Shown here piece after piece: positions 6,565 to 37,286 of a stretch of DNA of 64,000 nucleotides; positions within the stretch are counted from its first letter, which is position 1, and each line of letters starts with the position of its first letter. The position numbers were made by a program, and so were the translations under genes. The notes beneath the pieces were generated by a model. That model made no database searches and was not told where the DNA came from. It worked only from the letters and a program-made list of their open reading frames with translations. The stretch lies in the NCBI GenBank assembly GCA_963716565.1, contig OY970318.1, forward strand, positions 644,284 through 708,283, in the 5' to 3' direction. The stretch is from an uncultured Candidatus Saccharibacteria bacterium. GTDB lineage: Bacteria > Patescibacteriota > Saccharimonadia > Saccharimonadales > CAIOMD01.

Positions 6565-6587
6565 CTTTAGTAGAAATTAATAAATTC

Positions 6588-15927: not shown

Positions 15928-15972
15928 CGGTCACAATAATATCAGAAGTGAGTCAATCGCTAAAGGATATAG

Positions 15973-16692
15973 CTACAGGCACTGGTTGGTCGGGCCGTTA
16001 ACAAGCTCTACGGTAGTAATGTTAGAGGTGAACGAATTAGGCGCCGAAATTATTAAATGAGCCTCACCACTAGTTCTGTCTACTTGCCAGTTGCCTAGAG
16101 TAAGTTCTAGGGCATAAGGGGTTACTGGCAAGGTGCCGGCGCTACTAAAGGTTAATGAACTCCAAGAAGGAACTAACATTGGTGGGTCTTGAATCCACTT
16201 ATAATTTACGGTTCCAGGGGCATTGGTTGTTATCGTGCCAACGTACGTAAACGAATGTGTATACGGGAAGGTCATGCCGTCAAATTCATAACAGCTGGCG
16301 TTTGGCGTTACCTGGGCGGCCGTTACGGCAAATAACGGGAAGGGTGTTGGTGTTGGGGTTGGAGTCGAAGCTGGGGTTGGAGTTGGGCTACTGTTGCCAC
16401 CAGAACTTGGAGTTGGGGTAGCGGTTGGTGTAGATGAATTGGCAGTTGGAGTTGGCGTTGACGTTGACGTGGGAGTGGCCGTAGGATGGCTTGAATTATT
16501 TGCAGTAGTTCCATTAGTAGCACTTGGCTCAGTCTGATCATCACCTTTAATAACAAACAAATACAACACTAGGCCTATTGCTGCCAATATCAGCAATGCT
16601 GGCAAAATAAACTTGAGGCTTAAAAGCTTCTTATAGCCCTTTTCGTTGGTTGTAGATTTGTTAATATTTGGTTCTAATTTTGTTTCACTCAT
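15973..16692 (-). CDS. membrane-anchored hypothetical protein with Pro/Thr-rich linker
   Basis: 239 aa. N-terminal TM helix, then a long PTATPTSTSTPTPT... low-complexity linker, then a C-terminal globular domain with 2 Cys. Confidence 0.6.
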   Translation of the reverse strand: MSETKLEPNINKSTTNEKGYKKLLSLKFILPALLILAAIGLVLYLFVIKGDDQTEPSATNGTTANNSSHPTATPTSTSTPTPTANSSTPTATPTPSSGGNSSPTPTPASTPTPTPTPFPLFAVTAAQVTPNASCYEFDGMTFPYTHSFTYVGTITTNAPGTVNYKWIQDPPMLVPSWSSLTFSSAGTLPVTPYALELTLGNWQVDRTSGEAHLIISAPNSFTSNITTVELVNGPTNQCL

Positions 16693-16773
16693 GTTTTTAT
16701 TTCACTTTGCTTAATACTAATAACATAAGCATAAACACTATAACTGTCAATAGGAAGTGCCATGTCTTTGGCG

Positions 16774-16802
16774 TTGACTAAAGGCCATTTTACCCCTATA
16801 AT
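16774..16802 (+). promoter_or_regulatory. sigma70-type promoter for tRNA-Asn
   Basis: TTGACT (16774-79), 17-nt spacer, TATAAT (16797-16802), about 45 nt upstream of the tRNA. Confidence 0.6.
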
Positions 16803-16849
16803 TTGCCAAAGGTTAGCCTTGCGCGGGGCCAGTACGTTATTTTAGATAT

Positions 16850-16924
16850 TCCGGAGTAGCTCAATGGTGGAGCAAGAAGCTGTTAACTTCGAGGTTGCCG
16901 GTTCGAGCCCGGCCTCCGGAGCCA
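16850..16924 (+). tRNA. tRNA-Asn (anticodon GTT), CCA encoded
   Basis: Manual cloverleaf: acceptor TCCGGAG/CTCCGGA, D arm GCTC..GAGC, anticodon loop CTGTTAA, T arm GCCGG-TTCGAGC-CCGGC, discriminator G, CCA. Confidence 0.9.
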
Positions 16925-16925
16925 A
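16910..16925 (+). repeat. attL-like direct repeat (tRNA-Asn 3' end)
   Basis: CGGCCTCCGGAGCCAA is identical to 29574-29589. Confidence 0.7.
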
Positions 16926-16933
16926 AGCAAGCA

Positions 16934-16977
16934 GCCAAATGACGTGACCGTGTTCCTAGACCGTTCACTCATTTGGC
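16934..16977. repeat. 44-bp imperfect palindrome at the island's left edge
   Basis: GCCAAATGA...TCATTTGGC outer arms (9 bp perfect), with inner arms partly symmetric around TTCCTAG. Confidence 0.5.
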
Positions 16978-17028
16978 CTCTTGTACGGAAACGATTTGCT
17001 GAATAAGATTTTAAGTACCTTTAACATC

Positions 17029-17054
17029 GGAACCGCCAGAAATGGCGGTTTTTG
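17029..17054 (+). terminator. intrinsic terminator
   Basis: AACCGCC-agaaat-GGCGGTT followed by TTTT. Confidence 0.6.
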
Positions 17055-17134
17055 ATTCATTAACTCCTGCGCTTGGTTCTAGAACCGACCGTAAGCTATA
17101 TGAGAATCAAGCAGTACAAAGGCTGACTGTGTTC

Positions 17135-18148
17135 CTAGACCAATATCGTTTTTTGAAAGTATAGCGGTGTCTCTTCTTCTATTGCCGGCAGCGCTTGTCG
17201 AGCCAGTAATCGTTCGCTTGCTTTTTCTATTATGGCTCGCTGTTTAAGACCTTGTTGGTTGGCTATAATTATGCGCTCGGCAGAATAGTCTGCGGATACC
17301 ATCAACTTTCTACCATTAAGGATTATGCGGCAACTTGTATTTTGAAGTACTGCTTCAATCGTCTTCGTGGCTTCATTGGCGGAGAACACATCACGCTGTA
17401 ATTGGGTGTTAATTACAACCGTATTGATGCTGGGGTTGTTCTTAAGGTATTCGACTATTTTTGCTCGCTGATGATCGTTTACGGCATAGATGTGTGGTAT
17501 AACTGGCACGCCCAACTTGCTAAGTTCATGAACATAGGAGAGCGACTTATTCAAGTTGATTAACTGGCCCATGGGGCACTCATGTAAGAATAGCGAAAAA
17601 TTCATACCAGTGACGGCATAGAAGCCGCCTTTAGCTATCTCTTGAAAAAGTGATATTTCATGTTTATCAAACCATAGTTTTTCGATGACGACATCTATAT
17701 AGCTACTAAAGAGTACAATCTTTTTGCCTCGAAACGCTGGTCTATCTAATGCAGATAGAGATATGTGGACACCATCACGCATATAGTAGTGCCCCCAACG
17801 CAATTTGGGCTTGGTACTTAGTATATCCTTAAGGTTTATGCCAACTATTTTAGGGAATAGTTCTGGGTCCCAATCAAAGCATCCTGAAGGTACCACAACT
17901 AATTCATCTGGCATCACTGGTGAGCCGGTCATTATGGGCTTATTGGCAAAGTCCAATCCGCCAGCGTCTGCTATATACTCCTGCAAGTTAGTGCTATGAC
18001 AATCTACGATGCCCCGATTATCGCCAGGGCATCGCTCACGCACCAGTGCCTTTTCGTCCTTTGCTATGAGATTGGGTGCACATGAACTCGCGTCACAATA
18101 AGCACTGGCAAACAGAGAGACCTGGTTGCTATCGCTTGATCTCCGCAT
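17135..18148 (-). CDS. hypothetical protein (Cys-rich N-terminus + alpha/beta domain)
   Basis: Start chosen at ATG 18148 (MRRSSDS...), overlapping the upstream ORF by 20 nt. I cannot assign a family confidently; it vaguely recalls DUF4417-type proteins of mobile elements, unverified. Confidence 0.5.
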   Translation of the reverse strand: MRRSSDSNQVSLFASAYCDASSCAPNLIAKDEKALVRERCPGDNRGIVDCHSTNLQEYIADAGGLDFANKPIMTGSPVMPDELVVVPSGCFDWDPELFPKIVGINLKDILSTKPKLRWGHYYMRDGVHISLSALDRPAFRGKKIVLFSSYIDVVIEKLWFDKHEISLFQEIAKGGFYAVTGMNFSLFLHECPMGQLINLNKSLSYVHELSKLGVPVIPHIYAVNDHQRAKIVEYLKNNPSINTVVINTQLQRDVFSANEATKTIEAVLQNTSCRIILNGRKLMVSADYSAERIIIANQQGLKQRAIIEKASERLLARQALPAIEEETPLYFQKTILV

Positions 18149-18602
18149 AGCGTACGCCTTTTTTATCAACCACTTCAGCATAGTTGTATGCATAGCCCAT
18201 ACCGGCACATTGCTTCACTATTTTGTGTTGTAGCGTAGTCAATTGACCAACTATTGTGCCGGCAACAGTCTTTAGCAGCTGTTTGTCTAAGATCAACTTG
18301 GTACCAATCGACACCGTTTGGTTGCTTAGTTTAGTATCGAAGGCTAGCGGGCAGACATTATTGATGTCTACCGGTTGCGCGTCGGATCCTATACCGCCGC
18401 CCGTGCCTACAACACTACTATTTGATTTTGGCCTATTAATGACAGGCCGGTCATTTGATTTTCGTGCTACTGATGAGCCCATGTGGAAAACCTTCATCCT
18501 ATTCTGCGGTTGGTATTGACCGCTTATATTAGAGCTTGATAGGATAGAAGGTATACGAGGGTAAGATTCTTGTATACCTAAGATGCCAGTTACCGCTGGC
18601 AT
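18129..18602 (-). CDS. hypothetical protein (Gly/Ser-rich N-terminal half)
   Basis: The ORF is open to 18650. ATG 18602 (MPAVTG...) has AAGGAAAG just upstream, and other starts are possible. No recognisable family. Confidence 0.4.
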   Translation of the reverse strand: MPAVTGILGIQESYPRIPSILSSSNISGQYQPQNRMKVFHMGSSVARKSNDRPVINRPKSNSSVVGTGGGIGSDAQPVDINNVCPLAFDTKLSNQTVSIGTKLILDKQLLKTVAGTIVGQLTTLQHKIVKQCAGMGYAYNYAEVVDKKGVRYAEIKR

Positions 18603-18787
18603 CTTTCCTTTTCCAGCTTGGTTTAAATACTGGATAGACATCCAGCTCACAGAGTCTCAAATTTTATTTTGATTCTCTGACGTTATTTTAGCAGATATGC
18701 ATAAAATAAGCAAGCCAGAGGTATCGTTATGTGCGTATAAATACTCTACAAAGGCACTGATAGAGATTTATATCTTCAAGAAAAGTA

Positions 18788-18816
18788 TTGATTTATAATA
18801 CATAATATGGTATATA
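18788..18816 (+). promoter_or_regulatory. promoter candidate giving a near-leaderless mRNA
   Basis: TTGATT (18788-93), 17-nt spacer, TATATA (18811-16). The ATG at 18827 has no SD. Confidence 0.4.
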
Positions 18817-18826
18817 TGTATATATT

Positions 18827-19093
18827 ATGGATATAAATGAACAAAATAGTGGCTATAGGAAAGATATGTATACCCCCGAAGCACGTAAGGCGCGTTTTAA
18901 GAGGATTGCGGAAAAACGAACAAACAGAATCCTCAATGATATTCGTTTGATTGGTAACACCGGCAACAAGACTTTATATAGCTATGATCAGGCAGATGTA
19001 GATAAAATTTTTACAATTATTGATACAAAATTAACAGAAACCCGGTCCAGGTTTAAGACATCAAAAAAAGAAAAGCCGTTTACGCTTGACTAA
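18827..19093 (+). CDS. hypothetical small basic protein
   Basis: 88-aa, Lys/Arg-rich helical ORF. No family recognised. Confidence 0.45.
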   Translation: MDINEQNSGYRKDMYTPEARKARFKRIAEKRTNRILNDIRLIGNTGNKTLYSYDQADVDKIFTIIDTKLTETRSRFKTSKKEKPFTLD

Positions 19094-19099
19094 TGCGCC

Positions 19100-20374
19100 C
19101 TAAGGCTTCATGAACAGTAGGGATCCATTCTTGATGCTTAACCGCGTAATAAGACCACAAGCGAAAGCTGTTTTTTCACATTCGGTTCCTTTTGATAAGA
19201 CATATCTTGAGTATTCAATTAGGGGAGTATCTAGTTCTACCTCGATTTTGTAGTGGTTAAGAAGTGTTCTCGTAACACCAAGATGTTTCTCTATTTTCGC
19301 GCGCAATTTGTCAGTGATTTCAATTTTGTCATAATTCTTTTCGATGAATTCTTGTATTAGTGTACATAGGTTATTCTCGTTTATATATTTCTCTTGGCAA
19401 TTCGGGTCTACTCGTTTTGTACAGTTGTAATAGACATGACGATTAATTTCACCGTTCTTTAACTTCTTGAATTTCTCCTGTGCGGTTATATCTGCCCCGC
19501 AGCGTCCGCATTTCAGTAAACCACGGAATGCAAACTGTTTTGATCCCCAAATGCCTTTGTAGGTGCCTCTAGTTTGCTGAACAAGCTCAAATAGCTCTTT
19601 AGATATTAGTGGTTTATGCGAACCCTTGAACCACTTACCTGAACCTTCCGGATATTCAAACTCTCCGTAGTAAAAGGTTGTAGTCAGAATAATAAATATT
19701 TGGCTAAGAGTAATTGGTCTCCCTGAACGATTTGTGAAGCTTTGATTGTCAAACCAATCTTTTAATCTTCTGCCGCTCCAGCCATCTTGCCCAGCTTTTC
19801 TAAACATTTCGGCTATTATTTCTGCTCGCTCCGGGTCGGGGATTATGTCTTTTATGCCTCCAAAATGGCGGTTCATATAACCCAGTGGAGCCGCTCCGGG
19901 TCGCCAACCCATTTCGCACTTTGCCTTAATCCCTCTTTTGACATTCACGCTTTTGTTATCGTTTTCTAGTTTTGCTTGCGAGCAAAGGATCATCAGTAAG
20001 AATTTTTCATTTGGGTTGTTGGTAAACGTTTGTGAATATGTACGAATGTGTAGTAGCTTACCTTGATCCATTAAGTCGACTATCGATCCTAAGTCGCCAG
20101 CATTCCTGCTAAGACGATCGGGTGCCCATGTGAGCACAGCATTGTATTCTTTATTACGTAATCCTTCGAGTAACTGGTTGTAAGTGGGTCGTTGCCCAGA
20201 TTCTTTGGCAGAATGGCTTTCCTGGAGTTCGCAAACAATACTCAACTGTTCGTTCTCTGCTAAAGCTCGCATTTCTTTTAACTGTGAGTCGATGCTCATA
20301 GTTTGTCGCTCATCCGATTCGCTTGACTTACGGGCATATAGACAATATTTAAGTTCTGGCGCTTTTGTTTCCAT
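19100..20374 (-). CDS. large serine recombinase (resolvase/invertase N-terminal domain + recombinase domain + zinc ribbon)
   Basis: 424 aa. N-terminal YARKSSESDERQ..SIDSQ catalytic-Ser region, a central recombinase domain, and CGRCGADITAQEK...YYNC Cys pairs. Confidence 0.85.
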   Translation of the reverse strand: METKAPELKYCLYARKSSESDERQTMSIDSQLKEMRALAENEQLSIVCELQESHSAKESGQRPTYNQLLEGLRNKEYNAVLTWAPDRLSRNAGDLGSIVDLMDQGKLLHIRTYSQTFTNNPNEKFLLMILCSQAKLENDNKSVNVKRGIKAKCEMGWRPGAAPLGYMNRHFGGIKDIIPDPERAEIIAEMFRKAGQDGWSGRRLKDWFDNQSFTNRSGRPITLSQIFIILTTTFYYGEFEYPEGSGKWFKGSHKPLISKELFELVQQTRGTYKGIWGSKQFAFRGLLKCGRCGADITAQEKFKKLKNGEINRHVYYNCTKRVDPNCQEKYINENNLCTLIQEFIEKNYDKIEITDKLRAKIEKHLGVTRTLLNHYKIEVELDTPLIEYSRYVLSKGTECEKTAFACGLITRLSIKNGSLLFMKP

Positions 20375-20423
20375 AGTAGGACAAAGAATACCGCGATAGT
20401 TACTGAAGTCTAGCCCAAATTGA

Positions 20424-21071
20424 CTACTTAATAGGGCAAAAGAGTCCTTTGTACTTCTGTTGGTCTATGTCGTGATCCATTAGTATCTCTAATAAATTAT
20501 CTAGGGAATTTTTAACAGAGTCGAGGTAATACGCATCACTTCTAGCATCAAAACCATTTTCAGTCCACGCAAGAACGGCCATGCCGAGTATACTGCAAGT
20601 TTTTATTTCTACACCCAGCACTTCTTTTATGTCTTTAACGACATTCCAATAATCAGTTCTGTTATTGGGAAAATCCCAACAAATAACAAGAGGTATTAGA
20701 TTATCGCGTTTTATTCCACGTCTACTTACTAATACCGCTATGTCATCTAAGAGATTTCGTGGTGCGTCTAAGACTGCGGTTGACGGTATCTCAACCTCAC
20801 AGACTATTTTATGGTCGTTACTTGGGTCATCAATAAGTACATCGTATCTTTCATTTACATCACCCTTGCGAGGGAAATGCGCCTCTAGACCTAATTTGTC
20901 ACAAAGAGCTTTAATTAAGTATCTAAAACCATTTGGGTCTAGTTTTAGCCGTTGATAACTTGACACCAACAGATCCATCTTTTGGCTTAAATCAAAGTCA
21001 TTGTTTACAAGCTCCGAAATATAGTCTTTCTCTTCGGGCTTCGACTGTTGTTTAGTTTTATAGATTTGCAA
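20424..21071 (-). CDS. restriction endonuclease small subunit candidate (PD-(D/E)XK-like)
   Basis: 215 aa. The segment ERYDVLIDDPSNDHKIVCEVEIPS aligns by eye with ERFDVIIPDKKFSIPVEVKSP in the C-terminus of the adjacent 588-aa protein, so the two nuclease domains are paralogous. Confidence 0.5.
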   Translation of the reverse strand: MQIYKTKQQSKPEEKDYISELVNNDFDLSQKMDLLVSSYQRLKLDPNGFRYLIKALCDKLGLEAHFPRKGDVNERYDVLIDDPSNDHKIVCEVEIPSTAVLDAPRNLLDDIAVLVSRRGIKRDNLIPLVICWDFPNNRTDYWNVVKDIKEVLGVEIKTCSILGMAVLAWTENGFDARSDAYYLDSVKNSLDNLLEILMDHDIDQQKYKGLFCPIK

Positions 21072-22824
21072 AGCTAATTACTCCTCTCACGTCCGAAAAA
21101 TCAGAAATTAGATAGTTCTTGTCGTTCAATAGACAGTAATACGCTGCCGAGAGAAGAATATCCATATCTGCTATAGCTATATTGACGCCATACAAAGTAT
21201 GAATATCCTCTATCAGTTTATAAACATCAGAGCGTTCGTTTGGTATGTTATATCCGACTGCAAAGGTGCTAATTTCAGGAATAGTAGGGTAGTATTTACC
21301 ATATCTTGAAAGCAAAACAACCTTGTTTTCTAAAGCTTGCCGTACGGCTTTCACTGAGAGCATTACCTCTTCTGTTGGCGATTTAACTTCTACTGGGATT
21401 GAGAATTTTTTATCCGGGATAATGACATCAAATCGCTCGTTATTTACGCCTGCCTGTGGCGCTCTAGCGTCCAAGCCAAAAATAATTTGAAATAACTCAG
21501 CCACAAATGGGTAAAACTCCATCTGCTTCATAGTGATGGCCTTGCCGCTCATAACCCTAATTGCGTCGTGTGTATCGTTCTTGCAGTCATTCAATGTTTC
21601 TAGTAATTCATGCTTGGCACTGTTACGTTTCGCGGTAGTGGTATGAACTACCCCGATTGACTTGTCCGATTTAAAAGTATAGCCAATGGCGGTAGACCGA
21701 CTCACCGCGAAGTCTACAGTCTTATCTCCGATATCAGTTTCGTAATCGGGCAGTACATCTTTTATGCTTTGTTTATCAAAGTATTGGTAGGGAGAAAATA
21801 GCACCTTTTTTGCTCCAAAGGTTTCTGCAATTTCATTGATCTCAACCTCCATAGCGTCGAGCTCCTCATCAACAAGAAAGTCTGCTCTCCTTAACATTTG
21901 GAGAAAGCCTACTTTAGAAACCGAATTGATTATTGTTTGATCTTTTTCTAGTAGTACGCTTCCATTAATGGAGGCAACCTCGTCTAGCCATGCAATCAAT
22001 GCAGTACCTTTGGGGGTAATTTTTAGGAAATCTTTTTTCGAGCCATAGACGTTGCTGATATCCTTTTTTAGCCATCCGCAAAAAACCAAGGCAGAAATAA
22101 CAAACCGAGTGTAGTTTCTCATTGTATTTATTTCGATTCCGAGATCGTGTGATAATTTTTTCAGCTCTGCTTTGAGGTTGGAGTATTTCTTTGTGATTCG
22201 AAGATTTTTAATCGTATCGGACGTATTCTCAATTTCATCATTGTTATATCCATTCGATAAATTCATTGGTCCGATTAAAATTTCATCTCGACAAATTTCA
22301 CCGTCCAGTAGCGACACAGTCCTCATGATACTAACAAACGGCTTGTTAATATCGCGGAACTTAACGTCCAATATCTTGTTAGGATAATTTATGCCAAGTA
22401 AACATTGTTCGAACAATTTACCAGACGACTCCCCAGCAGTGGCAACGTGGACACCTAGGAATGTGAAATTAAATCTTAATGCAGCATCCTCGCTGGAAAC
22501 AATCCAGCCCAAGAAACGATAAACCTCAGCGTACATTTTGGCTTGGTTATATAAAGGGTTCCTAGACGTATCTTTTCGCTCATATGATTTTTCAAGTGCT
22601 TGTGCTCCAATATAGCCGGATGAGCTTGCAACATTCTCAGCTACCATAATGTCTGCCATATTGTTCAGATCGAAAGATTGAGCATTAGCTAAGTTGGCAT
22701 AGAGTAGCTTGAAGATGTTAATCAGCTGGCTAATATCTGACCCTGGGTTGGGAAATCTGATCATATCCCTGTCATTATAGTTCAGGCAAGAGTCGGCTAC
22801 AAACTCACAAAAATTATTTTGCAA
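21058..22824 (-). CDS. restriction endonuclease large subunit candidate (N-terminal recognition region + C-terminal PD-(D/E)XK nuclease)
   Basis: 588 aa. C-terminal D...EVK motif (FDVIIPD...PVEVKSP). In an operon directly after two DNA MTases, and overlaps the small-subunit gene by 14 nt. Confidence 0.55.
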   Translation of the reverse strand: MQNNFCEFVADSCLNYNDRDMIRFPNPGSDISQLINIFKLLYANLANAQSFDLNNMADIMVAENVASSSGYIGAQALEKSYERKDTSRNPLYNQAKMYAEVYRFLGWIVSSEDAALRFNFTFLGVHVATAGESSGKLFEQCLLGINYPNKILDVKFRDINKPFVSIMRTVSLLDGEICRDEILIGPMNLSNGYNNDEIENTSDTIKNLRITKKYSNLKAELKKLSHDLGIEINTMRNYTRFVISALVFCGWLKKDISNVYGSKKDFLKITPKGTALIAWLDEVASINGSVLLEKDQTIINSVSKVGFLQMLRRADFLVDEELDAMEVEINEIAETFGAKKVLFSPYQYFDKQSIKDVLPDYETDIGDKTVDFAVSRSTAIGYTFKSDKSIGVVHTTTAKRNSAKHELLETLNDCKNDTHDAIRVMSGKAITMKQMEFYPFVAELFQIIFGLDARAPQAGVNNERFDVIIPDKKFSIPVEVKSPTEEVMLSVKAVRQALENKVVLLSRYGKYYPTIPEISTFAVGYNIPNERSDVYKLIEDIHTLYGVNIAIADMDILLSAAYYCLLNDKNYLISDFSDVRGVISFANL

Positions 22825-22829
22825 TAGGA

Positions 22830-23636
22830 TTAAGAAGATTGGTCTAAATCAAGAGCTGTAGGCTCGTAGGTGGATTTTGAGATTCTGTCCTTAGCCATTT
22901 GAACATATTCGGGGTTTAGCTCTATGCCGACATAGTTCCTATGATTCTTTTTGGCACTCACGCACTCACTTCCGGATCCAGCGAATGGTACTAGCACCAA
23001 GTCACCTTCATTTGAAAAATGCTTAACAATCTTATCGCATATAGTTAGGGGTTTTTGGGTTGGGTGTGGGTACTTTTCGCCAGCAAACCTTTTACCCGCA
23101 AGCGTTGGTATATCCCATATGTCTCCTGCGTGTTTCCCTAGAGGGTTAGGAGTCCAAACCTTACCATTCTTTATTATTTTATTTTTCAGTCTTTCGGTGC
23201 TCAAGTATGGCTCTCTGATTTGGTGGTATGTGTAACCATTTCCTTTATGGAACCATAATAGTGGTTCGTACGTAGCTGCCGGACGATTTTTATAGGGAGA
23301 AAAGCCGTTCTTATAGTGCCAAATAAACATTCTTCCATAATCGAACCCAAGGTCATAAAGCATTTTCTGTATGTAGCCTATGTTGTGGTGTATCCCGTAG
23401 ACAAATATCGAACCACCATCTTTTAATACTCTATGTGACTCACTTAGCCACTTTTCAGACCATTTCAGCCACACATCTCGATCATTTAGAGTCCACTTTA
23501 TGCCCACTTGGAATTCTTTATCCTTTTCCATGCCATAAGGAGGATCGGCAATAATCAGGTCAATGCTACTATCGTCTATTTTCTTCAATAGTTTCACCAC
23601 ATCGCCCTGATGTACTTGGTTACTTTTTAGCATCAC
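22830..23636 (-). CDS. DNA methyltransferase (N6-A/N4-C type, beta-class motif order)
   Basis: 268 aa. DPPYG (motif IV) near the N-terminus and VPFAGSGSE (motif I) near the C-terminus. Confidence 0.85.
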   Translation of the reverse strand: MMLKSNQVHQGDVVKLLKKIDDSSIDLIIADPPYGMEKDKEFQVGIKWTLNDRDVWLKWSEKWLSESHRVLKDGGSIFVYGIHHNIGYIQKMLYDLGFDYGRMFIWHYKNGFSPYKNRPAATYEPLLWFHKGNGYTYHQIREPYLSTERLKNKIIKNGKVWTPNPLGKHAGDIWDIPTLAGKRFAGEKYPHPTQKPLTICDKIVKHFSNEGDLVLVPFAGSGSECVSAKKNHRNYVGIELNPEYVQMAKDRISKSTYEPTALDLDQSS

Positions 23637-24483
23637 TATCCTTGGTACTTTGTAGAATTATTATGTACTGATGGTGCATGTTTGGCACATACGAATAGGG
23701 GTAACCATAGGGAAATATTTTTTTATGTCTTTGGTATAGCACGGTCATCCCCTTAAGCTTAAATTCGCCAGAATCTTCAATCTTTTTTGCGAGGTCGGCA
23801 TGAAATAGATAAAACTGATCTTTATGTCTGAAATCGCTCACAACGATACACATATATTTTTTTGGTTTCAGTATTCTTCCGCAATCAATGAAAAATTTAG
23901 AGAGTATGTCAATAAAATCTTCGTAATTTTCTATATTGGCAAGATCCTCTTTTAGCTCACTATAGTTCAGGTCAAGATTATTGGCCTGTCTCTCCTTAGT
24001 TTTGTGGTCAGGCTTTTTGTTTAAGATAGTCCAGTAAGGTGGGCTTGTTACAAGAAGATCGACGCTGTTATCTTTCAGCTTTTTAATCTCTTTTATTGAA
24101 TCACCGTGAATCACTCTTTGCTCGGATGAATCATCTACTTCTTTGTCTAATCTTTCAAGGCTCAAATCGTAGAACTTTTCAACAAGCTCAATTCCTACTC
24201 CTTTTCGCCCCTCAATTGCAGCAGCCTTGAGCGTAGAAGCGACCCCCAGAAATGGATCGAATACCGTATCGCCTTTTTTTGTGAAGAACCTTATAAGCCG
24301 AGCAACATCTTGAAATGAGTATGGTGCTGGGTGCATTTTCTCTATTTTTGCATCGTCATGTCCAGCACCGAGACCTTTTTGTACAAATACAGAAATTGTC
24401 TCAGGTAGCCACTCTTTTGCAGTCAAATCATTGAGCTTATTGACGAGTTTTCGTTTAGGTTTTTCGTTATTTTCTTCTAGCAT
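23620..24483 (-). CDS. DNA methyltransferase (N6-A/N4-C type, motif I before motif IV)
   Basis: 287 aa. VFDPFLGVAST (motif I-like) at ~aa 75 and TSPPYW (motif IV) at ~aa 147. Confidence 0.8.
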   Translation of the reverse strand: MLEENNEKPKRKLVNKLNDLTAKEWLPETISVFVQKGLGAGHDDAKIEKMHPAPYSFQDVARLIRFFTKKGDTVFDPFLGVASTLKAAAIEGRKGVGIELVEKFYDLSLERLDKEVDDSSEQRVIHGDSIKEIKKLKDNSVDLLVTSPPYWTILNKKPDHKTKERQANNLDLNYSELKEDLANIENYEDFIDILSKFFIDCGRILKPKKYMCIVVSDFRHKDQFYLFHADLAKKIEDSGEFKLKGMTVLYQRHKKIFPYGYPYSYVPNMHHQYIIILQSTKDSDAKK

Positions 24484-24528
24484 ACTTAATAGTCTAACAA
24501 TTAATTACAGTTTTGTCTTCCCCTGACT

Positions 24529-24542
24529 AGAACTTATGTTCT
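24529..24542. promoter_or_regulatory. palindromic operator candidate AGAAC-TTAT-GTTCT
   Basis: GAAC-N4-GTTC core about 45 nt upstream of the first MTase start (24483). Confidence 0.35.
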
Positions 24543-24616
24543 GGAATATACAACCACCACATAGAACGTACTGCAATGGTATCAAAAGTCCAGGCTAATA
24601 TCAGCTACTCTTACAA

Positions 24617-25105
24617 CTAGTCCCAAAAAATATCCGTGGAGCCGTAGTCGCCATTTTCCCTGTAACATGTTGCATATAAGTACTTAGGCTTTATTTGAAA
24701 GACATTAAAGCGGGTACCGTCCTTTTCGGTAAAATCAGCGAAATTTAAGGCTGCATGCTGACCAGAGATAACGCTATAAGCCGCACCAGACATATATTTG
24801 TAATCTTGATTTAGGGTAAATTTACAGCCCGAGAAATCCTTTGCCTCGTTATTTATAAACGTTATTCCGTCTGCATTGTATGAAGCACTAACATTTAAAG
24901 TATCTGGGTCGCTAGATACTTTTGTTGGTGTGGGCGTGGAATTTGCTGTTGTTTTGGTCGTTGTCGTATTGTTTTGGCCAGCCTCTTTAGATTTAGAGTC
25001 AATATCGTTAAACGTGCTTACTACCATAGATAGCAGTATTAACATGCCCAAAATAGCCCACCATTTGAAATACCATTTTTTACCCGTTGCTTTATTCTTT
25101 TGCAT
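24617..25105 (-). CDS. membrane-anchored/secreted hypothetical protein
   Basis: 162 aa. N-terminal TM helix, Thr-rich linker (TTTTKTTANSTPTPTK), C-terminal domain with 2 Cys. Confidence 0.55.
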   Translation of the reverse strand: MQKNKATGKKWYFKWWAILGMLILLSMVVSTFNDIDSKSKEAGQNNTTTTKTTANSTPTPTKVSSDPDTLNVSASYNADGITFINNEAKDFSGCKFTLNQDYKYMSGAAYSVISGQHAALNFADFTEKDGTRFNVFQIKPKYLYATCYRENGDYGSTDIFWD

Positions 25106-25290
25106 TTACTTCCTCCGTCTAATTGATGACGCGATCTTGCGAGGAAGTCCATACAAAAAGGACAGCCACGCTAGATTGTCTAGACCAGAGCAAGCAGTGA
25201 TGCCTGCTTTTTCGCGTAGCTGCCCATTTATTGGCACCACTACGCAAGAACAATCTTGCATTGCTGTTTGCTCTGATCTAGACATTTTTA

Positions 25291-25737
25291 TTATATATCA
25301 GTTCTGTTCCTTTCGTCCTCTATCTGTTTTTCTACTTGCTCACGAATCTGGGTAATCATTTTAAGCACCGCTAAGTCGCTTTTAGCTGCAGCGGCGTTTA
25401 GAAGGTCAAATGCAATTGATTCGAAGAATCTCAATCTTTTAAGCTCGGCTACACTCACTCCGGCATATCGCTTGGAATTGTGATCAAGCCAATATCGTAT
25501 GCCTTGCATATTGCCAGAGTTAATAGCTTCCAATAATTTCGACTCTGCAAAATCATTCATTTTGTCACGACCTCGTGCGATCACAGCCTCGGCCTGCTCT
25601 TTGAACCCAGGATTAGACCCGCACCACCTATAAAAGGTGGAGCGAGCAATGCCGACTTTTTTGCAGGCCCTTTCAATGAGTGGATTATCCTCCAGCTCAT
25701 TTAGTATCCGTCTCTGATTTTTATTCCTTGGCTTCAT
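25291..25737 (-). CDS. helix-turn-helix protein (phage terminase-small-subunit/phBC6A51-like HTH)
   Basis: 148 aa. ACKKVGIARSTFYRWCGSNPGFKEQ pattern, typical of phage HTH/terminase-small-like proteins. Confidence 0.55.
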   Translation of the reverse strand: MKPRNKNQRRILNELEDNPLIERACKKVGIARSTFYRWCGSNPGFKEQAEAVIARGRDKMNDFAESKLLEAINSGNMQGIRYWLDHNSKRYAGVSVAELKRLRFFESIAFDLLNAAAAKSDLAVLKMITQIREQVEKQIEDERNRTDI

Positions 25738-27064
25738 GGATTAGCACTCTTTTTATACCAGTCACTTTTTCCCAACGAGCTAGTGCGACTTCGGCATAAA
25801 TTGGCTGTTTCTCCATGGTGTAGCACCGACGCTTCAGTTTTGTTGCTGCTATAAGGGTGCTCCCCGATCCACAGAACGGCTCAACTACCAGGTCATCACG
25901 TTTTGTAAGCACCTTTATGTAAGGTATCAGTATCTCCAGCGGTTTAATGCCAAATATGACACCTTGCCCAGAGCTTTTCTCGTCTGCTGCATTGCGTTCA
26001 ATGAAGTCAGTTGGTTGATATTTTTTACCTTTTTCATAACCCTCCCATTGTGGCTTACCAGCCGTGGCAAAGAGTGCGGTTTCGTAGGTTTCCTGCAAGG
26101 GTTCTTCTTCATCTTCGTGGTTATATGCCACATTGCCACTACCACCGACCATCGCAATGTCATATTTGCTAAAAAACTTGTACTTAGCAGCGAATCCTTG
26201 GTTACGATTTGGCAAATGCCAAACAAGCATGTTTTTTACTTTCCAACCTTGAGCTTCGAAACCTGACCAAATAGTCCGGATGTTCTTCCAATTTTCATAG
26301 CAGATGATACTGAAATCTGGTTTGGCATGATTAGCCACATTTTTCATCCACTTTTCGGTAAAATCCGATGGCAACTCATCAGTGCCTATGTAGCGGCGAT
26401 TTCTTTTGGAACCGAAGCCATCAGTTGGCTTACCGTGCCGCTTAGCGCGAAGATAGTCTAAAATGTACGGCGGGTCAGTAAGGCACATATCCGCCCTGTT
26501 ACCGTTCATGAGTAGGGCGAAGTGTTCAGGGTTCATGCTGTCACCTACCATAAGACGAGATTCGCCAAGTTGGTAGATGTCTCCCGTTTTAGCATTGACA
26601 TCCCTGACTCCGGCTTTGCTGAGAGCCACACGTAAATCGAAGTTATCTGGTTCTTCGTCTACATCAAAGATGTTATCTAGTTCCTCGCTGACCCAACCAA
26701 TATCTACAAGTTCTTTTTCGGTAAAGAGTTCTGCTAAAAGCGCGTTATCAAATTCCCCCAAGTTTTTGTTTAACCGAAGATTTAGCTCTTTTTCTCTTCC
26801 CAGCTCCGGAATGTTTACGTAGACAACAGGCACCTCTGTGTATCCTAGGTCTTTGGCGACCTTAAGCCGAAAATGTCCGCCAATTACAATGTTCTTTCTA
26901 TTCGGCGCTCCATTTACTAGTAATGGATCGACAAATCCAAACCTTTTTATACTATCCACTAATTGCTGGATTGCAGCCTCTGACCATTTTCGAGGATTAT
27001 AGTCTGATGCCTTTAGTTCGTTTATTTTTACTGTTTGTATTTGTAGCTCGTTAGTTTTTGCCAT
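25721..27064 (-). CDS. ParB-like nuclease domain / DNA methyltransferase fusion
   Basis: 447 aa. N-terminal ParB/Srx pattern (NPRKW..., GGHFRLKVAKDLG), then DPPY (CLTDPPYILDY) and a C-terminal EPFCGSGST motif I. Confidence 0.8.
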   Translation of the reverse strand: MAKTNELQIQTVKINELKASDYNPRKWSEAAIQQLVDSIKRFGFVDPLLVNGAPNRKNIVIGGHFRLKVAKDLGYTEVPVVYVNIPELGREKELNLRLNKNLGEFDNALLAELFTEKELVDIGWVSEELDNIFDVDEEPDNFDLRVALSKAGVRDVNAKTGDIYQLGESRLMVGDSMNPEHFALLMNGNRADMCLTDPPYILDYLRAKRHGKPTDGFGSKRNRRYIGTDELPSDFTEKWMKNVANHAKPDFSIICYENWKNIRTIWSGFEAQGWKVKNMLVWHLPNRNQGFAAKYKFFSKYDIAMVGGSGNVAYNHEDEEEPLQETYETALFATAGKPQWEGYEKGKKYQPTDFIERNAADEKSSGQGVIFGIKPLEILIPYIKVLTKRDDLVVEPFCGSGSTLIAATKLKRRCYTMEKQPIYAEVALARWEKVTGIKRVLIHEAKE

Positions 27065-27393
27065 AACAAAAACTCCCTTCGAATTGGATCCATGATATTT
27101 GTAGCAAAAATAAAAAACGTTTCGCTTTGTTAACCATGGCTAACCAAAATTAGTTATTAATCTTGGCTATAAGCCTTTGGTCAACTTGCGAAACGCTTGT
27201 ATCCCGTGAAATTTACACGCAGTTGATAACACCAGTTAAGCATGGGCAGTTGTTAGCTGTCAAAGGTGAAAAACAGAGTAAAAAGCCCACAAATATCACT
27301 TCTGGTGCAAGGTAGTCTATTCTGGGTCCGTGGAATTTACAACAGTTAAAAATTCTTTACTTATTTTGGTAACCAAGCTAGGGTGTGGGCACT

Positions 27394-27858
27394 ATGAAAA
27401 AGCTAAAGTCACAGGATTATTCGGTTTATCTAACTAGCATTGGCTGTGGCCGTTACCAAGTATTTATAAAAAACATATCGTCATCTGCGGATTTTGTGCG
27501 AATTATCATTGGCTATACTGGCATAAAAAATGGGGAACGAGTCGGTAGAATGGTTCGGGAATGGATTATTTCGCCCCTCAAGGCCGAAAATCCCGCAGTG
27601 TTCGTTGAAGAGATATATCAAAACGAACTGCACGCTAAACGATTCTGGGTAGCTTTTCAGGCCGTGAAGCGCACTAAACCTAAAAATATACCGCTTGGCA
27701 TTTTCGCCGCTCTGTCACCAACTCCTAGCAAGTGGTTTAAGACTATCGGCTCAACTACACCTTTTAATATCGAAAGCGTTGGTTCGGCCAAAGACCTAGC
27801 TAAGTTTCCTTTAGCCCCCATGCTTATCTCAGATCCACATAAGAGCAAGATGCTTTAA
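27394..27858 (+). CDS. hypothetical protein
   Basis: ORF with ATG at 27394 (an alternative GTG lies at 27385). No family recognised. Confidence 0.4.
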   Translation: MKKLKSQDYSVYLTSIGCGRYQVFIKNISSSADFVRIIIGYTGIKNGERVGRMVREWIISPLKAENPAVFVEEIYQNELHAKRFWVAFQAVKRTKPKNIPLGIFAALSPTPSKWFKTIGSTTPFNIESVGSAKDLAKFPLAPMLISDPHKSKML

Positions 27859-27888
27859 ATATAAGGTTCGTTATTAGATAATGAGTCT

Positions 27889-28209
27889 ATGACTAGAGAA
27901 AAGTTCAAGTCGATACTACTTTGCAAAGGTTTTAAATTTCAGAAAACAACATTGTCATACCCAGGCTGGCGTGGCGATGAGGATATATACACGCATAAAC
28001 CTGAGTATAAATATACATTCCGAGTTTTTCGGATGAATAGGGATAAGCCCGATTATGGTCTATATGTTGGCATCGGGAACCAATTCAGATTACTCGATTC
28101 AATGGTCGAGCACGATATAGATTTACAAGGTAATACGGGTAGTGATAAAACTATACCGATGTGGACATATGATGCGACCATTGAGCTTATGAAAAGGCTT
28201 AAATCATGA
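27889..28209 (+). CDS. hypothetical protein
   Basis: 106-aa ORF with a 4-nt overlap with the next gene. No family recognised. Confidence 0.45.
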   Translation: MTREKFKSILLCKGFKFQKTTLSYPGWRGDEDIYTHKPEYKYTFRVFRMNRDKPDYGLYVGIGNQFRLLDSMVEHDIDLQGNTGSDKTIPMWTYDATIELMKRLKS

Positions 28210-28631
28210 GTAGTTGGGTCATCTCCTCAAATCCAGAAACATACAACGCCAAGGGTTCACTTGCGGCGAATGACAAGCTGATGGACTGGGTGACTACAAA
28301 CAACTTTGAGGCTGGAGATACGGTATACATATACGAAGTCATTCCACCACGAGGGCGAGGTGGTATTGTCTACAAAACCACCGTTACAAAAACTAATTTA
28401 TCTTTTGAAGAAAAGTTAAAAGACCATGAATTTTGGCCTGGTCATGCATACCCGAATGACGTAACACGGGCACGGTTCAGTAGGCTAAAATTAGCGAGTG
28501 AGCTAAATAGCTATGGCCTGTCGCTCAAGGTACTAAAGGAGCACGGTTTTACTGCTCCGCAAGGCCATGCCTATCTGCTCGACAATAGTCCCAAACTACT
28601 TGCATATATTGAAAGCCAATTTAGTCTATAG
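28206..28631 (+). CDS. PUA/EVE-like domain protein (tentative)
   Basis: 141 aa. The N-terminal pattern W-V-I-S-S-N-P..Y.......DW......F..GD.VYIYE resembles EVE/ASCH-type PUA-like folds. By-eye assignment only. Confidence 0.35.
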   Translation: MSSWVISSNPETYNAKGSLAANDKLMDWVTTNNFEAGDTVYIYEVIPPRGRGGIVYKTTVTKTNLSFEEKLKDHEFWPGHAYPNDVTRARFSRLKLASELNSYGLSLKVLKEHGFTAPQGHAYLLDNSPKLLAYIESQFSL

Positions 28632-29183
28632 TTTCTTGGCTTTCTCAGCATGAATCTTCTGCTCACGCTCTAACACAGCTGCGATATTCTGGTTATCTTT
28701 GCGAAGAATCATATATGGGCCATTAGGGATTGGTCGTGCCTTTATTTCGCCACTACGTATGAGTTTTCGTATTGTCTGAGCATGTAGACCAGATTTCCAC
28801 GATAGGGTGGAGTCTGTGATGCATTTCTTATGATCCCAGTCACCACATAGTGATCCTGGAATTTTGCGTTTATTTACTGCATCTTGGCAATTCATACATT
28901 TGAAGCCCCATTTGTCGTACCAGCCATCGCCCTCATAGACACTTCGGCCACAGAGTGAACAATTACGACCTTTACCTTCGAGCGCAAAACCCTTTGGCTC
29001 GGTTTCGAGCTGCTTTTTTAAAGCACGTTTTGCCATATCCATTTCAACTAAGACATCTACAAAACCTACGAGATTTCTAGCAGCTTCTTCATATTCAGCA
29101 TCTGTTTCATATTTAATGCCTTTTTCGTCACATAGTGCCCTAAACTCCTTCAGGTATTTTTCTGATATCTTGTAATATTTCAT
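28626..29183 (-). CDS. zinc-ribbon + C-terminal HTH protein (possible excisionase/regulator)
   Basis: Start at ATG 29183 (MKYYKISEKY...) with GAAAGGAA upstream. Has CSLCG...CMNC Cys pairs and a C-terminal LHAQTIRKLIRSGEIKA HTH-like segment. Confidence 0.5.
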   Translation of the reverse strand: MKYYKISEKYLKEFRALCDEKGIKYETDAEYEEAARNLVGFVDVLVEMDMAKRALKKQLETEPKGFALEGKGRNCSLCGRSVYEGDGWYDKWGFKCMNCQDAVNKRKIPGSLCGDWDHKKCITDSTLSWKSGLHAQTIRKLIRSGEIKARPIPNGPYMILRKDNQNIAAVLEREQKIHAEKAKKL

Positions 29184-29319
29184 CTGATTGTTCCTTTCGC
29201 TTCTTTTCTTGATAAATGTCGTAGAGCAGTGCCGCAAATGCCAGAGCATCACGTTCCATAAGCTCTTTGCGTGTTAGTGTGTGCGACTTTTGTTTGAGCT
29301 TTTTAGATTTGTATGCCAT
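29140..29319 (-). CDS. small ORF (59 aa) not in the supplied ORF track
   Basis: ATG 29319 is preceded by GGAGG with a 6-nt spacer. Translation is MAYKSKKLKQKSHTLTRKELMERDALAFAALLYDIYQEKKRKEQSDEILQDIRKIPEGV. Overlaps the next gene's start. Confidence 0.35.
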   Translation of the reverse strand: MAYKSKKLKQKSHTLTRKELMERDALAFAALLYDIYQEKKRKEQSDEILQDIRKIPEGV

Positions 29320-29573
29320 AAATAACCTCCGTTATCCAATAAAAATGAGACACTTTTCACTATAGGCGTGCAGTGTCCCATTTGTCTCGTTTTTTGCCCC
29401 ATAACACTGTAGAATGGTTCATGACCGGTATGCGGAGCCAAGAATTAAGAAGGTCAGATTTATCTGGCCTTTTTAATTCTTAGATTCTCGAAGAGAATCG
29501 GCTAGAACCGGATTGCCCGTAGGGCCGGTTCGTGAAGCGATTAGCGGAGATAACGAGCGAAGCAAAGTGCTCT

Positions 29574-29589
29574 CGGCCTCCGGAGCCAA
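29574..29589 (+). repeat. attR-like direct repeat (copy of tRNA-Asn 3' end)
   Basis: CGGCCTCCGGAGCCAA is identical to 16910-16925. A T-arm fragment GCCGGTTCG lies at 29524-32, separated from the repeat by ~40 unrelated nt. Confidence 0.7.
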
Positions 29590-29592
29590 CTA

Positions 29593-30687
29593 CTAAAGTT
29601 GCTTGAGCAGATTTAGCAATTGTGTCGCGACGTACACATTATTAAACTTTAATGCTTGTTCGCGATTGTGTTTGAGCGAATCTATATACGACCTATCGTT
29701 GATTACTTTGCAAATCTGGGCTGCAGCTTCGGCAAAGTCAACTGACTCAATATCGCCAGTCGCTTTGTTGTAGGGAGCTTTAATAACTTCGAGTCCTTCT
29801 ATCTTTTCTGACCCGTTCATCTCGATAATTACTGGGTAGCTTGCGCCTAAATGTAGCGACCCCGAACTTTCACCTGTGCGCACTTTATTGCCATAAAAGT
29901 ACATTTGGGTATTAAAAGTGATTGCCATGTCCTTGGGCTGTTGGTTCTGGGCGTCAACTAGGATGATGTTTTGGCCGTCAACAACTGCGTCAGTATCGGC
30001 AGTATGAGCGTCGCGAAATTCAACATCAACATCTGGGAACAACTGTGCGAATTCTGCTTGAAGCTTATCAATGCCTAGTTCGCTAGCAGGCTTGCCGCCT
30101 AAATACCCTACAACTGTTGCATTGCCAGAACCCTGTTTAAATACCTCACCAATTACTTCTAGAGTATGAGTAGTTGCCCGCATGTCGCCCCATGTAGTGT
30201 GCGTACCAACAACAATTACTTCAGGCTCAGGGTTGAATGGTTCCTTGTCGATATCAAAGAAACCGTGAGGCACAACTTTCTTTACGGCTCTTGGCACATC
30301 GTAGAAGTCATCATCTATGTGCATATCGCCAAGAAAAACTAATCCAAGCTGTCTTGGGCTGTCGGCTAGTAAGTTGTGCAACTCGGGTAGGCGATCTTGG
30401 ATTTCATCTGGTCGGTGTAAGAGCACTACAACCGGACTATCCGGGTTTTCGGTGAGTTCTTTACTTAAAGATTCCATAATGGTTTCGTCATCAGCCCTTG
30501 CATCGGCATTGCCATGAATCTGGAATATTGTACCCCTAGGGGCTTCATTACCGGCTTCTGCAAGCTTTCTAAAACCAGCGGCAAGCATGCCTTCGGTATA
30601 TCGCTCTAAAGTTGCTGCCCCATAAATTTTTATTTCTTTGCTCGAAGAGAGCAGGCGCTCCTTTGAAGTAGGATATGCATCCATCAT
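29593..30687 (-). CDS. hypothetical protein (acidic, 364 aa)
   Basis: Long ORF whose stop lies 4 nt from the att-like repeat. No family recognised. Confidence 0.5.
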   Translation of the reverse strand: MMDAYPTSKERLLSSSKEIKIYGAATLERYTEGMLAAGFRKLAEAGNEAPRGTIFQIHGNADARADDETIMESLSKELTENPDSPVVVLLHRPDEIQDRLPELHNLLADSPRQLGLVFLGDMHIDDDFYDVPRAVKKVVPHGFFDIDKEPFNPEPEVIVVGTHTTWGDMRATTHTLEVIGEVFKQGSGNATVVGYLGGKPASELGIDKLQAEFAQLFPDVDVEFRDAHTADTDAVVDGQNIILVDAQNQQPKDMAITFNTQMYFYGNKVRTGESSGSLHLGASYPVIIEMNGSEKIEGLEVIKAPYNKATGDIESVDFAEAAAQICKVINDRSYIDSLKHNREQALKFNNVYVATQLLNLLKQL

Positions 30688-36947: not shown

Positions 36948-37159
36948 AAAATCCTCCCTTTGCTTAAGATTATAACCTTAAACGCTTTAAAAATCGAAAT
37001 TAGTAAACTTAAAGGCAGCCGATACGCCTGGCATGATCAAGGTATGCATGACATAGGCCAGCGTTCGCAATGAAAGGGGGCTACAGCTTTTTGATTGATG
37101 TAGTAAATACTTTTGAAACTCACTAAAAAAGCTTTATGATGAGACTATTAACAATTTAA

Positions 37160-37258: not shown

Positions 37259-37286
37259 TTTTCCGAGCAGAAAAATGGTGTTTTTG

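Follow-up and report, generated by a model that had tools for sequence, protein, structure and literature searches.

The window analyzed here is a 64,000-nucleotide (nt) stretch of an uncultured Candidatus Saccharibacteria bacterium (contig OY970318.1; all coordinates are window positions), in which a tRNA-Asn gene is followed directly by a genomic island encoding a large serine recombinase. The tRNA-Asn(GTT) gene (16850-16924, plus strand), treated below as the B arm of the attachment site, was recognized by both ARAGORN and Rfam (RF00005, 62 bits) and is unbroken by the insertion; it differs from the tRNA-Asn of the island-free relative L115 at 1 of 75 positions. A first-pass annotation, made from the sequence alone, had described the intact tRNA and had drawn the island between its end and a second copy of a 16-nt string. 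This 16-mer, CGGCCTCCGGAGCCAA, occurs exactly twice in the window as a direct repeat on the plus strand, at 16910-16925 and 29574-29589, and two matches were obtained in none of 100 dinucleotide-preserving shuffles. The 9-nt copy of the T arm reported with it, GCCGGTTCG, is likewise present at 29524-29532. A repeat search detected in addition a third, imperfect copy, CGGTATGCGGAGCCAA, at 29426-29441, which the first-pass annotation did not contain and which is the true end of the island. Tetranucleotide distance was 0.017-0.023 inside the island and 0.0119 +/- 0.0009 outside, indicating foreign composition, and the k-mer check proposed earlier thus supports the island; the GC check proposed with it does not, because the GC content (41.0% versus 42.8%) is by itself no marker of the island.

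The recombinase gene (19100-20374, minus strand) encodes 424 amino acids (aa) with the domains Resolvase (E 1.2e-21), Recombinase (PF07508, E 4.6e-12) and Zn_ribbon_recom (PF13408, E 6.9e-8), in agreement with the large serine recombinase expected there, and matches a PHROG integrase family with E 2.9e-60. Its YARKSS and DRLSRN motifs align with those of TP901-1 and other solved catalytic domains, and a Cys4 ribbon is present; the closest solved structures match the catalytic domain only (E ~1e-6). Judging from the catalytic motifs, the Cys4 ribbon and a length like that of its homologues, the enzyme looks intact. As had been stated, the sole recombinase of the island is of the serine type: profile searches with Pfam, PHROGs and NCBIfam found no tyrosine recombinase, and none of the listed open reading frames (ORFs) matched the Phage_integrase family. 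Two candidates for a cryptic tyrosine integrase, a 357-aa ORF beside the tRNA and a 364-aa ORF outside the repeat, were rejected, as neither had integrase family matches or motifs.

The recombinase family and its tRNA neighbors

The recombinase has thousands of relatives. The best 120 share 70-83% identity with it, and those that carry a name are labelled Candidatus Saccharibacteria or Saccharimonadales. A scan of one genome per species found a relative encoded in at least 558 species genomes, which are mostly metagenome-assembled and labelled Saccharibacteria or other Patescibacteria, some being labelled otherwise (e.g. Gammaproteobacteria; labels unverified). The GenBank phage collection contained no close relative, the best match having 28.8% identity.

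For counts of neighboring tRNA genes, the recombinase was placed on the plus strand in each of 80 fetched loci. The nearest downstream tRNA was arranged tail-to-tail with the recombinase in 51 of the 80 loci and in the opposite orientation in none, and this tRNA was Asn, Met or Gln in all but two of the 51. Among the 47 loci having at least 5 kb of downstream sequence, 39 had a tail-to-tail tRNA, and the gap between recombinase and tRNA was 310 bp or less in 18 loci. Upstream, any tRNA was found at only 2 loci in 607 kb of sequence. The type of tRNA varied with the recombinase: at 66% identity or more it was tRNA-Asn (10 loci) or tRNA-Met (3 loci), and below that mainly tRNA-Gln (35 loci); three loci, with tRNA-Pro, tRNA-Met and tRNA-Arg, depart from this pattern. 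In IMG/VR contigs, more remote relatives adjoin tRNA-Ser. The 424-aa serine recombinase is very probably the integrase of the island. Exact repeats of the tRNA 3′ end of 11 nt or longer were almost absent in the same 80 loci, and this was the first hint that the 16-mer is not the attachment (att) site of the family.

Ends of the island and attachment arms

Relatives of the locus were found with a neighboring LexA-like gene (14117-14569) that is conserved in Saccharibacteria, a search independent of the recombinase. The two loci with the closest LexA-like homologues on large contigs, L115 and L116, have the gene order in common with the window on both flanks, namely GtrA, LexA-like and Sua5 on the left and deacetylase, ExoD, DUF4430, DUF6580, Na/H exchanger and DsbA on the right. 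Each has a tRNA-Asn and lacks both the island and the recombinase. In L116, the start codon of Sua5 lies 15 nt past the tRNA-Asn; in L115, the tRNA-Asn is followed by a hairpin, approximately 90 nt more, the sequence CCGGCCTCCGGAGCCAA (approximately 131 nt from the tRNA) and then the Sua5 leader. When the window sequence up to 16924 was joined to that from 29441 onward, the construct was collinear with L115 across the promoter, the tRNA, the whole 150-nt segment and the 16-mer. Therefore, the island spans 12,516 bp (16926-29441) and ends on the right in the P arm described below, and the 16-nt repeat is older than the island. The empty-site comparison that the first-pass annotation had called for thus found relatives without the island and at the same time overturned the boundary proposed there, because island-free L115 keeps the 16-mer and the approximately 130 nt ahead of it; the true right end lies 148 bp further left, at 29441. 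The more general claim of a foreign island directly 3′ of the tRNA-Asn stands, given the deviating composition and the absence of the island from L115 and L116. Exact-sequence look-ups of the flanking proteins, which are singletons, found no strain without the island.

In accordance with this end point, nucleotide similarity to related elements reaches 29441 and then stops, and 29442-29600 had no match in any of the 114 loci compared. Two other loci found through the LexA-like neighbor, L118 and L120, are occupied and carry the P′ arm (see below) at position +1 after the tRNA (E 2.2e-17). In L120, a recombinase of 423 aa that has all three domains is encoded at a distance of 1.7 kb from the tRNA, beside type I restriction-modification (R-M) cargo; the sequence of L118 breaks off 1.3 kb beyond the tRNA, too short on the island side to show a recombinase. 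At this locus, a recombinase is thus found in the occupied sites that can be read far enough (window and L120) and in none of the empty sites. The stretch between Sua5 and the deacetylase/ExoD genes was different in every relative examined.

The P arm forms the right end of the island (attR; 29369-29441, plus strand) and contains GTGTCCCATTTGTCTC and a pseudo-tRNA 3′ end, GGTTCATGACCGGTATGCGGAGCCAA (29416-29441). The consensus of the family is GGTTC[RW]GACCnG[TC]ATGnnGAGCCA with GTGTCCCATTTGTCTC ahead of it, and 29416-29440 of the window matches it with no mismatch. With a P-arm model built without the window, 29369-29441 was the sole significant match in the window (E 2.3e-15), and a 27-nt core model built in the same way matched at 29416-29441 (E 8.6e-8), while neither the 16-mer nor the region at 29527 was significant with the window-free arm models. 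A second, decayed P arm at 29526-29552, around GCCGGTTCG, is suggested by a likeness seen by eye and was rejected (E 350 with the P-arm model). Two arrangements of the P arm were found among related loci. It is followed by unrelated host-like DNA, as expected of attR, in the window, L002, L006 and L011 (twice in the last), and by a P′ arm with no tRNA, an attP-like arrangement, in L010, L022, the IMG/VR contig L081 and a 14.7-kb metagenome contig (L109), the last being one of the 6 loci obtained by a metagenome scan with the ParB-methyltransferase described below.

The P′ arm is the conserved left end, a hairpin of approximately 63 nt that starts at +1 after the tRNA (16926-16988, plus strand) and has the apex GACCnnGTTCCTAGACC; the window-free model matched it at 16926-16982 with E 9.8e-7. 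These 60-70 nt with the same apex are conserved after the tRNA at tRNA-Asn, tRNA-Met and some tRNA-Gln loci, and hairpin equivalents were seen in L004, L005, L009, L010, L011, L017, L024, L109 and L002. Across 11 elements, 6 pairs of the 13-bp outer stem showed compensatory changes, and the apex was nearly invariant. RNAalifold gave no structure when all 22 P′ arms were aligned; the 11-member subfamily alone gave the supported stem. From its sequence and fold, the hairpin may be a replacement trailer or terminator of the tRNA, a protein-binding site, or both. Further inside the left end lies a terminator-like hairpin, GGAACCGCCAGAAATGGCGGTTTTT (17029-17053, plus strand), which is conserved in L009, L015, L002, L004 and L118/L120, and approximately 180 nt inside the element a second P′-type motif is found (17109-17151, plus strand, with GTTCCTAGACC at 17131-17141; P′ model E 0.0012), which forms the direct repeat D20. 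L118 and L120 have the same motif at +192 (approximately 12192-12218 and 7302-7328, respectively), with a terminator-like hairpin between the motifs. A reading of 17109-17151 as the junction of tandem elements was rejected: no P arm lies ahead of it, and L118/L120 share both the motif and the distance, so the second motif is built into the element. Three tRNA-Met genes lie within 6.6 kb elsewhere in the window (52220-52294, 52852-52927 and 58728-58804), and no P′ arm was found beside them, although tRNA-Met is a target of related recombinases elsewhere.

Compared in the same register, the P arm and the tRNA of the window agree at 18 of 25 bases; the only long identity is CGGAGCCAA. This 9-nt core, the longest in-register block common to attL and attR, comprises the end of the acceptor stem, the discriminator, CCA and the +1 base, and is located at 16917-16925 (plus strand) in attL and at 29433-29441 in attR. 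In six in-register pairs of attL and attR, the common core measured 9, 8, 6, 6, 4 and 4 nt. It reads CGGAGCCAA in the window, CGGAGCCA in L011 and GAGCCA in L002, all at tRNA-Asn, and CAGCCA in L030 and CAGC in both L041 and L042, at tRNA-Gln. Provided that the exchange position is conserved throughout the family, the exchange point would lie within AGC, tRNA positions 72-74. Serine integrases need a non-palindromic dinucleotide for polarity, and for this reason AG is likelier than GC as the crossover dinucleotide. The last bases of the P arm are GAGCCA in Asn elements and CAGCCA in Gln elements, so that the arm fits the target of its own element. As element and tRNA have an identical core, insertion restores the tRNA in full without displacing any part of it.

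Tandem arrays or stacked remnants at one tRNA were observed in L009 (reverse-complement 5860-9206), L010 (15630), L022 (12193) and L036 (620-719), and L011 has two P arms (94-118 and 664-688) 570 bp apart. The resemblance of attR to attB and of attL to attP possibly explains the arrays of L009, L010, L022 and L036; that it is the cause of the stacking is speculation. Other subclades of the recombinase have conserved post-tRNA sequences of their own, e.g. AGCTTAGTTTAGTATCGAAGGACCTAG and CATATGCTAAGTCAGGTGACTGAC, as observed 3′ of tRNA-Gln in L054, L067 and L072 and likewise in L055-L057, L059, L061, L076 and L080. This suggests that arm and recombinase co-evolve across subclades.

Host DNA resumes behind the P arm. 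A hairpin at 29441-29480 (plus strand; 18-bp stem, -29.8 kcal/mol, z -7.65) aligns with the post-tRNA sequence of L115 and represents the B′ side, which trails the tRNA when the island is absent. It belongs to a 148-nt segment outside the island (29442-29589, plus strand) that ends in the 16-mer at 29574-29589, is present in island-free L115 and is absent from L116. The L115 sequence past its 17-mer resembles the L116 sequence right after the tRNA, and the segment is therefore an old insertion with direct repeats of 16-17 nt of the tRNA 3′ end. Between window and L115 (29500-29589 and 11331-11394), the 3′ 64 nt of the segment are 92% identical and the 5′ part approximately 60%; for comparison, proteins of the two genomes are approximately 77-83% identical and neighboring intergenic DNA approximately 60%. 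The 3′ half reads as a T-stem and the start of a T-loop, approximately 41 unrelated nt, the 3′ strand of the T-stem, the 3′ strand of the acceptor stem, and CCA. Two compensatory changes were noted by eye, the fold of the conserved half was no better than that of shuffled sequences (z ~-1), and neither ARAGORN nor Rfam at gathering thresholds found an RNA gene in the segment. A similar layout was observed at the tRNA-Gln locus L030 (2148-2408), where a canonical P arm is followed by approximately 165 nt opening with a terminator-like hairpin and then by 24 nt that repeat the tRNA 3′ end exactly; this recurrence suggests that the layout is no one-off accident. Our best guess is that the 148-nt segment is the eroded stump of an earlier element with a longer identity block, which leaves its conservation unaccounted for; alternatively, it may be a functional small RNA.

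The orientation of the host genes differs among the relatives. In L115 (10776-11550) and L116 (10459-11082), the tRNA-Asn is co-directional with Sua5/TsaC and directly upstream of it, whereas in the window (15394-16924) and L118 it points the opposite way. The t6A modification of tRNA-Asn is built from a precursor that Sua5/TsaC synthesizes, and the tight linkage of the two genes may be functional.

Gene content and proposed mode of insertion

Two genes upstream of the recombinase recur in its relatives. The ParB-methyltransferase fusion noted in the first-pass annotation (25721-27064, minus strand) has the Pfam domains ParB_N and N6_N4_Mtase, and copies of approximately 70% identity are found in 43 of 80 loci. 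The phage-type helix-turn-helix (HTH) protein noted beside it (25291-25737, minus strand) resembles the terminase small subunit (PHROG small-terminase families, E ~1e-5) and is found in 41 of 80 loci. As both lie upstream of the recombinase, they argue for a common phage backbone. Of 114 related loci, 43 encode a large terminase (TerL) of almost complete length; the window and L009 have none, and L081 has an 84-aa fragment only. In L090, a 37-kb IMG/VR contig, the order is ParB-methyltransferase, small terminase, large terminase (E 4.6e-81), two ORFs and recombinase. Between the small-terminase-like gene and the recombinase of the window lie two methyltransferases and the 215-aa and 588-aa ORFs, and L009 has the same cassette in the same slot; a 3.5-kb stretch that includes the recombinase, the 215-aa ORF and the 588-aa ORF is 72% identical between the DNA of the two elements. 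Taken together, the order in L090, the lost TerL and the cassette of L009 indicate that the island descends in reduced form, without the large terminase, from a temperate Patescibacteria phage and carries defense cargo. In keeping with the earlier statement that structural phage genes are missing and the remaining ORFs are orphans, no portal, capsid, tail or large terminase gene was found in the island with Pfam and PHROGs.

The cassette had been annotated as a four-gene R-M module, and two of the four genes can be demonstrated. These encode type II N6/N4 DNA methyltransferases of 268 aa (22830-23636) and 287 aa (23620-24483), together spanning 22830-24483 on the minus strand, with N6_N4_Mtase E 9.1e-50 and 1.1e-24 and PADLOC MTase_II E 3.9e-58 and 4e-34, respectively. 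The other two, the 215-aa and 588-aa ORFs (20424-22824, minus strand), have no significant family match and are candidate restriction components; they are 81% and 76% identical to the ORFs at the same position in L009, which also lie beside methyltransferases, and Pfam, NCBIfam and PADLOC recognized no nuclease family in them. In L120 (10185-16686), a type I R-M system and an AAA/SMC-like ATPase lie beside the recombinase in place of the type II-like cassette of the window, and the slot appears to be an exchange point of defense genes. Between the left end and the recombinase are two orphan cargo ORFs (17135-18650, minus strand) of 357 aa (17135-18208) and 173 aa (18129-18650); they had no meaningful match in Pfam, PHROGs, NCBIfam or PADLOC, the lone match being far below the cut-off, and tblastn against the first 80 related loci gave none. 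Beside the right end, the zinc-ribbon/HTH protein of the first-pass annotation (28626-29252, minus strand; 208 aa) was recognized again by a CxxC...CxxC motif in its translation and a weak HTH_17 match (E 3.9e-4, below the Pfam cut-off), and it is a candidate regulator or directionality factor. Outside the island, a cobalamin riboswitch (37154-37263; Rfam 36.7 bits, gathering threshold 31.5) lies upstream of the DUF4430/DUF6580 pair.

We propose, with a probability of roughly 80%, that 16926-29441 is an element which derives from a Patescibacteria phage backbone, lost TerL and the structural genes, took up an R-M cassette, and was inserted at the tRNA-Asn by its own serine recombinase. The insertion would have occurred by attP x attB recombination. 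The predicted attP joins the P arm, a mimic of the tRNA-Asn T-arm and acceptor end, to the hairpin-forming P′ arm (29380-29441 + 16926-16990; junction GGTTCATGACCGGTATGCGGAGCCAA followed by AGCAAGCAGCCAAATGACG), and the predicted attB joins the 3′ end of the tRNA-Asn gene to the hairpin behind it (16880-16925 + 29442-29480; empty junction CCCGGCCTCCGGAGCCAA followed by GAATTAAGAAGGTCAGATT). Strand exchange would take place inside CGGAGCCAA, judged from other family members at approximately tRNA positions 72-74 (AG or GC), and because the core is common to both partners, the tRNA would never be broken and none of its fragments displaced. The P′ hairpin would take the place of the native 3′ trailer or terminator of the tRNA, excision would require a directionality factor, and the older 148-nt insertion, closed by the 16-nt repeat, would already have been beside the tRNA when the element arrived. 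The first-pass annotation had considered the integration mechanism worth a look because a tyrosine-type duplication stood beside a serine recombinase. The interest was justified; the paradox dissolves, since the 16-mer predates the island and the serine recombinase element has only the 9-nt core in common with the tRNA.

Several points weigh against this proposal. A dyad-symmetry profile scan around the core showed no clear axis, unlike classical serine-integrase sites, and the in-register match of P arm and tRNA is atypical of attP and attB half-sites. The P-P′ junctions could all be tandem arrays instead of circles, L010 and L022 being chromosomal contigs. The recombinase lies 2.2 kb from attL and is not adjacent to it, and no directionality factor was identified. 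The exact 24-nt tRNA copy of L030, approximately 165 nt past its P arm, is interpreted by analogy with the window. Finally, we infer from sequence that it was the 424-aa recombinase that catalyzed the insertion.

The L030 copy would also suit the explanation nearest to the first-pass annotation, in which the island is 16926-29589, bounded by the 16-nt repeat and exchanged in the tyrosine manner by a cryptic or lost integrase, with the serine recombinase as a passenger. An exact 16-nt repeat is far beyond chance and the layout is like that of Islander-type tRNA islands; on the other hand, island-free L115 has the 16-mer and the preceding 130 nt downstream of its tRNA-Asn, the conserved element end is at 29441, the elements of L002 and L011 have no long tRNA copy at all, and Pfam, PHROGs and NCBIfam revealed no tyrosine recombinase, so that we regard this explanation as highly improbable. 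No more credit can be given to the idea of a domesticated host recombinase whose role is to rearrange DNA in the vicinity of tRNA genes, and not to integrate a mobile element. Its wide distribution, at 50-83% identity across Patescibacteria, would fit such a role, but the gene is absent at the locus in the closest relatives (L115 and L116), adjoins terminase genes in IMG/VR viral contigs and is accompanied by variable cargo in an island of foreign composition, and contigs frequently break beside it.

A dead remnant, i.e. an old insertion by the serine recombinase that is now immobile and kept as fixed R-M cargo, is unlikely, and yet deserves more weight than the two explanations above. TerL and all structural genes are missing, extra orphan genes lie between the recombinase and attL, and eroded remnants do occur at such tRNAs, as the 148-nt segment and the P arms of L011, 570 bp apart, illustrate. 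Against these stand a recombinase of full length with its catalytic motifs, a P arm that fits the family pattern without mismatch, two intact cores, and the same TerL-less layout with its cargo in another species (L009, 72% DNA identity), which suggests spread. The full-length recombinase and the intact cores and arms are in favor of an island that is still mobile, and the layout is equally compatible with a decaying prophage and a still-moving satellite.

Beyond this locus, we consider it fairly probable, with less assurance than for the island itself, that a large clade of Patescibacteria and phage serine integrases is specialized on tRNA 3′ ends, with a P arm that mimics the tRNA, exchange at the acceptor-discriminator junction, which would leave the tRNA unsplit, and possible tandem stacking. 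This reading covers tRNA-Asn, tRNA-Met and tRNA-Gln, with relatives beside tRNA-Ser and tRNA-Arg, in lineages labelled Patescibacteria. Targeting of tRNA ends would then be the apparent rule in a family spanning hundreds of Patescibacteria species, of which the window element is one well-delimited member. Integration into tRNA genes is usually treated as a hallmark of tyrosine integrases, and the clade reading, if true, would overturn this working rule. It would also provide ready-made site-specific integration tools for Patescibacteria, which are hard to manipulate, including candidates for Saccharibacteria, and a testable system for how a serine integrase reads a tRNA gene, and it would explain a hot spot at which defense genes turn over in genomes of very small size. 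The locus is also a caution for the automated calling of islands, as its obvious tRNA repeat misplaces the boundary by 148 bp and suggests the wrong mechanism. In the literature, we found no description of a Patescibacteria serine integrase family targeting tRNA genes, a search whose coverage was incomplete, so that an earlier description elsewhere is possible; the family is apparently undescribed.

Comparison with known systems

Measured against phiC31, Bxb1, A118 and TP901-1, the window element has in common a three-domain recombinase with the catalytic Ser motif, a very short att core without a displaced target fragment and, in most relatives of the element, a recombinase gene beside attP. 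By sequence, the enzyme conforms to the definition of a large serine recombinase, and its sites to the short core of that class. The attP and attB sites of classical serine integrases are imperfect inverted repeats of 40-50 bp around a central dinucleotide; no clear dyad symmetry was detected at the window sites. The element also differs in that it targets the 3′ end of a tRNA gene instead of a protein-coding gene, and in that its P arm imitates the T-arm and acceptor end of the tRNA in the same register.

Islander-type and P4-like tyrosine islands likewise insert at the 3′ end of a tRNA that remains functional and accumulate in tandem at the same tRNA. In contrast to them, the window island has no tyrosine integrase, its crossover lies in the last few bases without displacing a tRNA fragment, and the lone tRNA fragment nearby, the 16-mer, comes from an older event and lies 148 bp past the conserved end of the element. 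In the phage-inducible chromosomal islands (PICI), the likeness is one of size and content: approximately 12 kb, an integrase, a small-terminase-like gene, no structural genes, and full-size phage relatives with the same backbone genes. The window island differs in that neither a helper phage nor a packaging site nor a capsid-remodelling gene was identified for it.

The Ccr serine recombinases of SCC/SCCmec insert at the extreme 3′ end of rlmH and leave the gene active, and their elements stack in tandem. Insertion by a serine recombinase at the extreme end of a gene without inactivating it, together with tandem stacking, is shared by the window element, whose target is a tRNA gene instead of rlmH and whose backbone is derived from a phage. 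The 424-aa recombinase scored 102 bits against CcrB (NCBIfam cut-off 900), 55.5 against CcrA (700) and 50.8 against CcrC (900), and the CcrB score, so far below its cut-off, shows that it is not a Ccr.

A precedent is a survey with TIGER, in which t(m)RNA genes were the predicted target of 14 out of 297 serine-integrase islands, compared with 44.5% for tyrosine integrases, and which described the use of t(m)RNA genes by serine integrases as previously unreported and in need of experimental proof (Mageeney et al. 2020, PMC7192596). Those 14 islands and the present one have in common that a serine integrase was paired with a tRNA target by computation. They differ in that the pairing described here is a property of a whole family, for which attP, attL, attR and attB are defined.

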